14,810 nucleotides of DNA from a virus, in UHGV virus genome UHGV-1815592; one strand, 5' to 3'. Made by a program: the position numbers. This document shows positions 1 to 3,000 of the stretch, one piece after another (position 1 is the stretch's first letter; each line of letters begins with the position of its first letter).

Positions 1-3000
1 TCTTCTTTGCTATCGAAATACCCTAACGATATTGTCTTATTTTTATAACCAACATAAGACTTCCACCTGCCAGTTGGCTTATACCAAGACACTCCAATTG
101 CACCGGATGTGTTTAATCTATTCCCTACAATGTTTCTTGCATTCTGCTCTTCTGTTGCCAGTCTTAGGTTTGAAATCCTATTATCAAGTCTGTTCCCATT
201 TACATGATCAATAAACTTAGGAGGCCATTTTTTGTATACATAGAACCAAGCAAGTCTATGCGCCTTATACAAAACATTATTTATACTAATGCATATATAA
301 CCACCACTAACACCTCCAGCAATACTACCTTTTACTCTTACTACTGAATTTGTTTTTAGCCATTTAAATATTCCTGTTTCTGAGTCATATGATAATGTTG
401 ACAGAAGCTCATCGTGATCAATTAGTTTTTTTATTCGCATAAAGAATATACTTAATAATATATACAGTAAGAACCATTAGTAACGATAACCCTGCTATTA
501 GCTCAGTGATGTAGATGGTCATACGTCAGCCCCTTGTGCATATCGTCTGCCACGCGCAGCAGGTGCATTTGATGCTGTGCAAATCTGTCTGGCTTCATCC
601 TGGTCACATGCAACAAAGTGTCCGTTACAGAACCGCTGGTAAACTGTACCAAGCGAACCAAAACGGTTTTTCGTCACGATGATTTCAGCAAATGGCGCGG
701 CGCTACTGTTCTCATCATATACCGCTTCCCGATAGAGCATGATGATTGAGTCTGCGTCCTGTTCAATGCTTCCTGAATCACGCAAATCTGCGTTTGTCGG
801 GCGTTTGTTTGGTCGCTTCTCAACATCGCGCGAAAGCTGACTCAGGGAGATAACCGGTGTTTTCAGGTCTTTCGCCATCGCCTTCAGGCTTCCGGAGATG
901 TGAGCAATTGCGAGGTCGTTGCGGTCTGCTTTCGGCTTCTCAATCAGGCCAAGATAATCCGCCATGATGAGTGACAGGTTTGGATTTTCCTGCTTATGCC
1001 GTTCTGCGATTGAGCGTATTTCTTCGACCGATAACCGCGAAGCATCGACTACCCATACATCCAAATCTGCAAGCTGACTCATGCCGTTAGCAACACGTGC
1101 CCAGCCCTCGTCATCCATCGATGCAGGATTTCGCAGTACGCTAACCGACATCCTCCCGGCGTTGGCAATGCTTCGCTCTGCAATCTGCAATGCGCTCATT
1201 TCCATTGAGAAAATCAATACCCCGCGCCGGACGTCAGAACCAGGAATAACGCGGCTTGCCACACCTTCGGCAATCTTCAGCGCCAGTTCGGTTTTCCCCA
1301 TACCAGGACGAGCGGCGATAATCACCAGGTCTTCTGCGTTCATCCCTCCAGTGATAGCGTCAAGCTCTTCGATTCCGGTCTTCAGGGTATCTGACTCTTC
1401 TCCGTTCCTCAGACGCCTGTCAAGCGTGTCAGTGTAGTCAGTGATGATTTCCCCTAACCGTACAGGTTTAACCTCGTCACGGGGCTTTCTGATGGCTGAA
1501 AGACGCTTTACAAGTTCATCCATCGCCTGACTCGATGCGTCGATGGTTCCGCTTTGGATTGGTTCACGCATTTCATCCATGATTTCCAGCACCAGACGGC
1601 GGTGATAGTTATCCGCGACCATTCCGGCATATCCCTTCAGGTTTGCGGCACTCGGGCAGTTTTTGCTGGTCATCAGGATTGACGTGAAATGCTCCTCTCC
1701 GCACGCCTCGGCAACCATCAGCGCATCGATTAGGTTTCTGTTTCTCGCCTGCTTGCGAATAACCTCGAAGGCTTTCCGGTAGAGCGGAATTGAAAACGCT
1801 TCCGGCTCCAGCGTTGCCAGAACGTCACTGGCGGTTGGAGTTAATCCACCAATCAGCAGGCCACCGATAACGCTAGCTTCGATATCCTGTCTCATGCAAT
1901 CCCCCTGTCTGCAAACTTCCCTTCCCGAACTCCCGTTAACGAATCTTCCCTCAGCAGGTAATCAAAATCTGCCGTCCAGCCCGTGTCGTTGTCTCCGAAG
2001 TAAAACGGCTTGGCCTGATGCACAAACGCCCTGACATACGCTCTGAAACCGTCCACGTTTGGCGTTTTCAGTTGCGGGATAATTTTCTTCAGGCGGCGTT
2101 TTCGTTTCTCGTTGACCGCAACAGCGTGTGGAAGTCTGTCACCGACTTCGGTGTTGTAGGCGTTCAGGAAGGATTCGTAGTCGATTCGTTCTGCCTTGCG
2201 ACGTTCAGGTTTAACCTGCCCATCGCCATCCCCGTTAGGGGGTAAGGGGGTATTTGTATTTATTGTCTTTTGTATATTGTCTTTTGTGTTTAGCTGACTT
2301 GGCTTATACCCATTAGCCGACTTGGCTAATGTTTTATTAGCTGTTTTAGCTAATGTTAAGCTGTCCTGGCTAATCCACTGAGAAACCACCTTGTTCACTC
2401 CGATTTTCACGCCATCAGCAATGAGGAATTTACGCTCAATAAGCTGGCGCTTGGCAGCGCAAACATGAGTGTGATGAATACCTGTCATGGCTGCTATGCG
2501 TGTTTGTGAGTCGATCCATCGGCTTATTGAATCCGTATGTCTTGCGCATGATAGCGAGCATCACCTTCAACTGCCGGACGGTTAAATCAGCCATCAGCAG
2601 ACTGTCGGTAATCTCGTTAGCAACGCGCATGAAACCATCTTCGGTATCTGCCACGCGATGCTCCACGACCTCCAGTTGAGGCCTGTAATCAGCTAACTTA
2701 ACGACGCCCATGTTTCACTCCTGCTTTGGCTAGTCTGTAAACACCAACAAGGCGCTCTGCGAACGCCCTGTTATTTGCTGCGGCTACCACTAATCCCTCA
2801 GGTGAATCAGGGTGTCGAATCTCTTCTTTTTCCTGGTATTTCTTACGACGTTTTGTCATAATTACTCCTGTGGATTGATCCAGTAATTCCCTCAGAATTG
2901 CATATCAATTTGCTTAAAATCCTCGGTGGCAGCCGGGGATTTTTTCTTTGTGATTTCATCAAGCGCATACTTAAAAGCCCTGCTAATCGGACTGATGTCT

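Follow-up and report, generated by a model that had tools for sequence, protein, structure and literature searches.

Has the replication module of this phage been inactivated by a frameshift in its O-like initiator gene, or does the break stem from the sequencing or assembly of the record? The question was raised by a first-pass annotation of the 14,810-nt stretch of the virus genome UHGV-1815592 analyzed here (the window), and the evidence permits exactly the two answers that the annotation had named: an unremarkable 2-bp deletion private to this sequence, or an artefact of low coverage. The window holds the early part of a lambdoid prophage of the Stx-phage Nil2/2851/1717 type, and we consider it reasonably probable that its O gene has lost two bases in codon 72. 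The minus strand of the window corresponds to the early rightward operon, in the order cro, cII, orf53, O, and DnaB-type helicase. An ORF scan and profile matches placed cro at 3330-3545 on this strand and cI at 3614-4315 on the plus strand. As in Nil2, cII (2892-3188, minus strand) and orf53 (a 53-codon ORF at 2698-2859, minus strand) lie 5' of O in the same operon, so that O follows cro and cII and precedes the helicase gene, the position typical of a lambda-type O initiator. The 1-kb O stretch was 99.8% identical to those of Nil2, 1717, 2851, several Stx2a phages, and others, with 1003 bases in the match against 1001 in the window.

The O-like sequence was found in two minus-strand ORFs that overlap in different frames: an N-terminal fragment at 2436-2711 (91 aa; stop codon at 2436-2438) and a C-terminal fragment at 1892-2488 (198 aa, equivalent to residues 76-273 of the intact protein). 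Each carries part of the Pfam family Phage_rep_O, the 91-aa ORF matching profile positions 1-55 (E 2.5e-18) and the 198-aa ORF positions 51-95 (E 2e-8). Because the two ORFs take up complementary halves of the profile, one domain is split over two frames, far beyond what chance would give, and the frameshift is real in the sequence. The broken frame described in the first-pass annotation was thus confirmed. The N-terminal ORF, which had been said to end 23 codons past ...PMDR, in fact ends after 24.

Alignment with Nil2, HK446, and phi330 placed the deletion at 2496-2498 (minus strand), and it was the sole difference of the window common to the alignments with these three phages. Where the relatives read ACACGCAGATAGCAGCC, the window reads ACACGC--ATAGCAGCC; the intact sequence is ACACGC[AG]ATAGCAGCC (ACACGC-AG-ATAGC), and the placement of the deletion is ambiguous by one base (AG or GA). 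Across the junction, the intact allele reads ...CGCAGATAGC... and the deletion allele ...ACACGCATAGC.... No homopolymer, dinucleotide repeat, or other short tandem repeat is present at the site. The frame switch had previously been put at 2517-2525; the true switch lies ~20-28 nt downstream of that in the direction of the gene, and the native O frame picks up again at 2497. The peptide 'IDSQTR', cited earlier as O sequence, is out-of-frame text: native O reads ...YGFNKPMDRLTNTQIAAMTGIHH... at the lesion, and the restored translation gives PMDRLTNTQIAAMTGIHH at the break. 'IDSQTR' bears a likeness to 'ITDSQ' of lambda O, and the alignment and the restored translation mark this likeness as a chance out-of-frame match. 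On the whole, the frameshift, the split O, the iterons, and the intact helicase of the first-pass annotation stood, and the junction position, the codon count, and 'IDSQTR' had to be corrected.

The codon hit by the deletion is number 72 (CAG, Gln) of a 273-aa protein. When AG was put back, an 822-nt ORF was obtained with a product identical to Nil2 O (CAC95088) and to WP_000539354, a 'replication protein' annotated in two E. coli assemblies. The restored protein was likewise identical over 273 residues to those of phages 2851, 1717, Stx2a_WGPS6, and HK446, and the Nil2-type O is similar to HK97 gp54. Relative to Nil2, the window therefore lacks AG in codon 72 and has ORFs of 91 and 198 aa in place of one gene. 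Phage_rep_O matched the restored protein at residues 19-113 over the entire profile (positions 1-95 of 95; E 5.8e-33), the C-terminal half had no Pfam match, and a search of solved structures with the restored protein returned nothing at E <= 1. As encoded in the window, the 91-aa product consists of 71 native residues and 20 out-of-frame residues, so that the continuous frame of a functional lambda-type O is interrupted by a stop 20 codons past the deletion. The break at codon 72 divides the Phage_rep_O origin-binding domain near its middle and leaves neither fragment with a whole domain. Judged from the amino acid sequence, the break probably falls at the start of a helix-turn-helix-like segment, TQIAAMTGIHHTHVCAAKRQL. 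These results indicate that the window holds a pseudogene allele of a member of the Phage_rep_O family.

The rarity of the deletion was surveyed with an 80-nt query centered on the junction against 5,426 complete E. coli genomes and phage records. Matches were found in 400 E. coli genome records and 51 phage records, all in the 95-99% identity band, and in each row among the matches listed, the 80-base query was aligned to 82 bases of the record, at 97.6%. The identity band and the 82-versus-80 spans together mean that no surveyed record has the deletion: it was present in 0 of the 400 complete E. coli genome records and in 0 of the 51 phage records having the O stretch. An exact 41-mer over the junction also had 0 matches in the genome, viral, and JGI metagenome contig collections. 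By these searches, the deletion allele is private to this sequence, and the alignment against intact O genes proposed in the first-pass annotation as a means of defining the indel has yielded a private 2-bp deletion.

Over positions 1-5475, the window differed from E. coli NJS001 only by the deletion and four clustered base calls. As this stretch otherwise matches an intact relative, the lesion, if real, would be a single recent hit; the alignment leads us to infer one very recent event in the E. coli population sampled rather than decay over a long time. The comparison 'as in a cryptic prophage' is hence overstated, the rest of 1-5475 differing by four error-like calls only. With respect to signs of decay, 1-5475 had no further lesion and gam, bet, and exo were open; the late region is covered by neither the window nor the contig.

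Programmed frameshifting had been put forward as a finding that would overturn the pseudogene reading. In its broader form, this explanation takes O to be a functional split or recoded gene, with a +1 shift of the ribosome at the junction or with fragments acting together or separately. Its sole support is that both fragments are open and that the 198-aa frame starts with ATG. Against it, the frame is kept continuous by the two extra bases in 451 of the 451 relatives with the O stretch, the overlap shows neither an X XXY YYZ nor a known +1 motif, the local RNA structure is not out of the ordinary (z = -1.13, with 28 of 200 shuffles folding as well), and no Rfam match was found at the site. The break also cuts a single compact domain, and the ATG at 2488 has no obvious Shine-Dalgarno sequence in front of it, so that the 198-aa fragment is probably poorly made. 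The lack of conservation (0/400 and 0/51), of a motif, and of unusual structure led us to reject programmed frameshifting, and we regard a functional split gene in any form as highly improbable.

The source of the sequence bears on the choice between mutation and artefact. Two contigs were retrieved when the exact 91-aa product was looked up. The first, NODE_1271_length_23732_cov_3.213034 of ENA ERZ1308086, is a gut-metagenome contig with a k-mer coverage of 3.2; the window was identical to all 10,711 bases fetched from this contig and starts at the contig's end. This contig, 23.7 kb long, terminates there within the nin region, 518 nt beyond the helicase gene. The second contig, CHAT13-1_SAMEA2145815_METAG-scaffold_3930 of ERZ28577070, also has the deletion. 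One of its ends coincides to the base with the window start, and it has a 10-N gap at window position 4487. The common contig end hints at the same reads or at a shared repeat boundary. With the same end as the window and a break at the cluster of miscalls described below, scaffold_3930 was downgraded as an independent confirmation, and the two assemblies were probably built from the same reads. A literature search by the sample accessions found no papers.

Compared with all relatives, four bases of the window are changed to G: 4485 T>G, 4494 T>G, 4496 A>G, and 4504 T>G. Each changed base repeats the G before it and comes after a GGC triplet, and all four fall within the inverted repeat GGCAGG...CCTGCC, which is located downstream of cI. 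Illumina sequence-specific miscalls follow GGC and inverted repeats and mostly copy the preceding base (Nakamura et al.; PMC3141275). The 4485-4504 cluster looks like miscalls of this kind at a coverage gap, and because the pattern fits the published one, uncorrected read errors have evidently entered NODE_1271. These calls are part of the case for a sequencing or library artefact, according to which the O gene of the prophage is intact and two bases were lost in one or a few faulty reads, or in PCR duplicates of one damaged fragment, that thin coverage forced on both assemblers. The k-mer coverage of only 3.2, the gap of 10 N in scaffold_3930 at the miscall site together with its end at the window's contig end (probably the same reads), and the uniqueness of the deletion among >450 near-identical sequences point the same way. 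However, sequence-specific Illumina errors are in-register substitutions, not a clean 2-bp deletion with a perfect match after it; earlier work reported in the introduction of PMC3141275 likewise describes Illumina errors as mostly substitutions, not indels. Moreover, the deletion site is not a homopolymer or short tandem repeat, and the second assembler left the miscalls out (the 10-N gap at 4487) yet kept the deletion, which suggests that the deletion has better read support than the 4485-4504 miscalls. We therefore rate the artefact as a possible but distinctly less favored explanation.

A real, recent null mutation of O is the explanation that we prefer, with some reservation. It is supported by the presence of the deletion in two differently built assemblies, from which it follows that the junction was in the reads and is no quirk of a single assembler, and by a site without a homopolymer or dinucleotide repeat. 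Independent lesions of the same gene in other assemblies and the frequency of frameshifted genes in E. coli O157 prophages (PMC2669165) also speak for it. The k-mer coverage of 3.2, the miscalls in the same contig, the probable lack of independence of the second assembly, and the lack of any other record with the deletion count against it.

The mutation could also be real and yet belong elsewhere, if the contig were a chimera of pieces from at least two related prophages or strains and the broken O came from another element or from a minority variant. The far part of the window offers some material for this idea. The segment 10300-11376 matches another prophage locus in O157:H7 genomes than the remaining window does, the region 7577-10354 is more diverged from its nearest relatives (98.6% identity), and scaffold_3930 ends at ~7641 with last bases of the reference haplotype and not of the window's. 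In contrast, O, the origin, the helicase gene, cII, cro, and cI lie on one unbroken stretch (1-5475) that is colinear with single phages, and mosaicism at the far end leaves the reading of the O lesion unaffected. A chimeric origin of the broken O is accordingly very unlikely.

The two far-end segments are observations in their own right. The 10300-11376 segment was absent from the closest relatives of the window and had a 99.9% match to the different O157:H7 prophage locus; in strain TR01, its counterpart is located at 0.897 Mb and the O region at 2.705 Mb. Either natural mosaicism or a chimeric join accounts for it. The gam-bet-exo region (7577-10354) had 36 substitutions, with less diverged flanks, and this divergence together with the end of scaffold_3930 suggests that the sample contained two related prophages or strains.

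Other broken alleles of the same O gene were recovered. A look-up of the exact 198-aa product returned seven contigs, including both deletion contigs. In GCA_000471425.1, an NCBI draft (KI303520.1, 1275-2097), one G is inserted, CAGATA[G]GCAGCC, 3-4 nt from the deletion of the window. In the Logan contig SRR12135865_485 (1-30) and three similar places, O is preceded from codon 76 onward by a 28-mer, with the break at codon 75/76. In NJS001, the same 28-mer directly adjoins an IS3-family transposase gene and is likely an IS end; the break in SRR12135865 is thereby indicated to be a putative IS629/IS1203-type insertion. A further allele is that of phage vB_EcoS_phi330 (1590-2410), which has lost one base in a C5 run of the same O, equivalent to window position 2242, and is annotated as two CDSs; this loss may be a homopolymer sequencing error in that record. 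The deletion of the window, the +1 G, and the putative IS insertion, three lesions within ~15 nt, were considered as a mutational hot spot and dismissed as an ascertainment effect, because an exact 198-aa call needs a lesion between the in-frame Met65 and Met76, which explains their nearness. Taken as recorded, these alleles show that disruption of this O gene recurs independently.

Prophages of E. coli O157 often have frameshifted genes and IS insertions, and it has been suggested that other resident prophages may complement a broken replication gene (PMC2669165). The recurrent disruption of O fits this picture of the O157 prophage pool. The defective prophages of O157 Sakai (Asadulghani et al. 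2009, PMC2669165) are likewise lambdoid, with frameshifts and IS insertions in essential genes. In contrast to that pool, the window has a single lesion in otherwise pristine sequence, and it comes from a low-coverage metagenome and not from a finished genome.

The other parts of the replication module were intact in sequence. The iterons reported at 2250-2380 were resolved into four iterons at 2292-2374 (repeat families D1 and D2; inverted repeat I1), adjoining an AT-rich tract. The iterons are ~16-22 nt each, are imperfect palindromes of the type TTAGCnnnnnnGCTAA, and are spaced at 20-24 nt. The AT-rich tract was delimited at 2250-2291 (repeat family D3), with a GC content of 0.28 over 2250-2309, and has a 14-nt tandem motif at 2259-2288. 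Both elements lie inside the initiator's own gene, as is characteristic of a lambda-type O. The DnaB-type replicative helicase gene (519-1895, minus strand; 458 aa) matched DnaB_C (E 9.5e-78) and the DnaB N-terminal domain (E 4.5e-13) and was without difference from the WP_001248388 genes of two E. coli assemblies with intact O, in agreement with the first-pass description of the helicase as intact. The iterons, the AT-rich tract, and the helicase gene thus match those of intact phages, and the stop codon of O and the start codon of the helicase gene overlap as ATGA.

In phage lambda, the origin consists of four iterons followed by an AT-rich tract inside O. The window shares this layout, as well as the N-terminal Phage_rep_O domain and the position of O downstream of cII in the rightward operon. 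Unlike lambda, in which the partner of O is a P-type loader for the host DnaB, the window has a DnaB-type helicase as the partner. The initiator and DnaB-type helicase arrangement is that of genes 18 and 12 of P22. The gene order cII, orf53, O, and DnaB-type helicase and the in-gene iterons are as in Nil2.

If the deletion is real, the broken O would no longer bind the four iterons in its own gene, and the phage DnaB-type helicase would not be brought to the unbound origin. In lambda, without functional O, the iterons remain unbound, the helicase is not delivered, and origin-dependent replication fails. This biology and the loss of the whole domain lead us to predict that, after induction, the prophage would fail its own origin-dependent replication unless a co-resident prophage gave an O of the same type in trans. 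Such a helper is expected to be uncommon, since the 399 E. coli genomes that have the O stretch carry only 413 copies of it in total, the median genome having one. Translation of the helicase may also fall, as ribosomes would stop ~540 nt upstream of the ATGA overlap. A lower phage yield after induction, and of toxin too in the case of an Stx phage, would then be expected unless another prophage supplies O. If instead the deletion is an artefact, it illustrates that metagenome contigs of ~3x k-mer coverage can hold errors that break a reading frame and that 'pseudogenes' found in such contigs should be confirmed in the reads. Beyond annotation, the importance of the lesion is slight; the gene, the origin, and the partner helicase were already known.

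A more elaborate version of the mutation would be that the deletion is both real and selected: a replication-dead O would lock an Stx-type prophage in gut E. coli with immunity and recombination kept, or the 198-aa fragment would be made and bind the phage helicase, and the other O disruptions would reflect recurrent selection, not neutral decay. We give this scenario hardly any credence.

Elsewhere in the window, gam (7625-7921, plus strand) is an intact 98-codon ORF; of the closest relatives with complete genomes, STEC799 has it annotated as frameshifted and NJS001 has it interrupted by IS1203. Two Rfam families matched above the gathering score: the Lambda_thermo cIII thermoregulator at 7260-7318 (plus strand; 88.5 bits) and sRNA-Xcc1 at 12319-12407 (plus strand; 69.3 bits).
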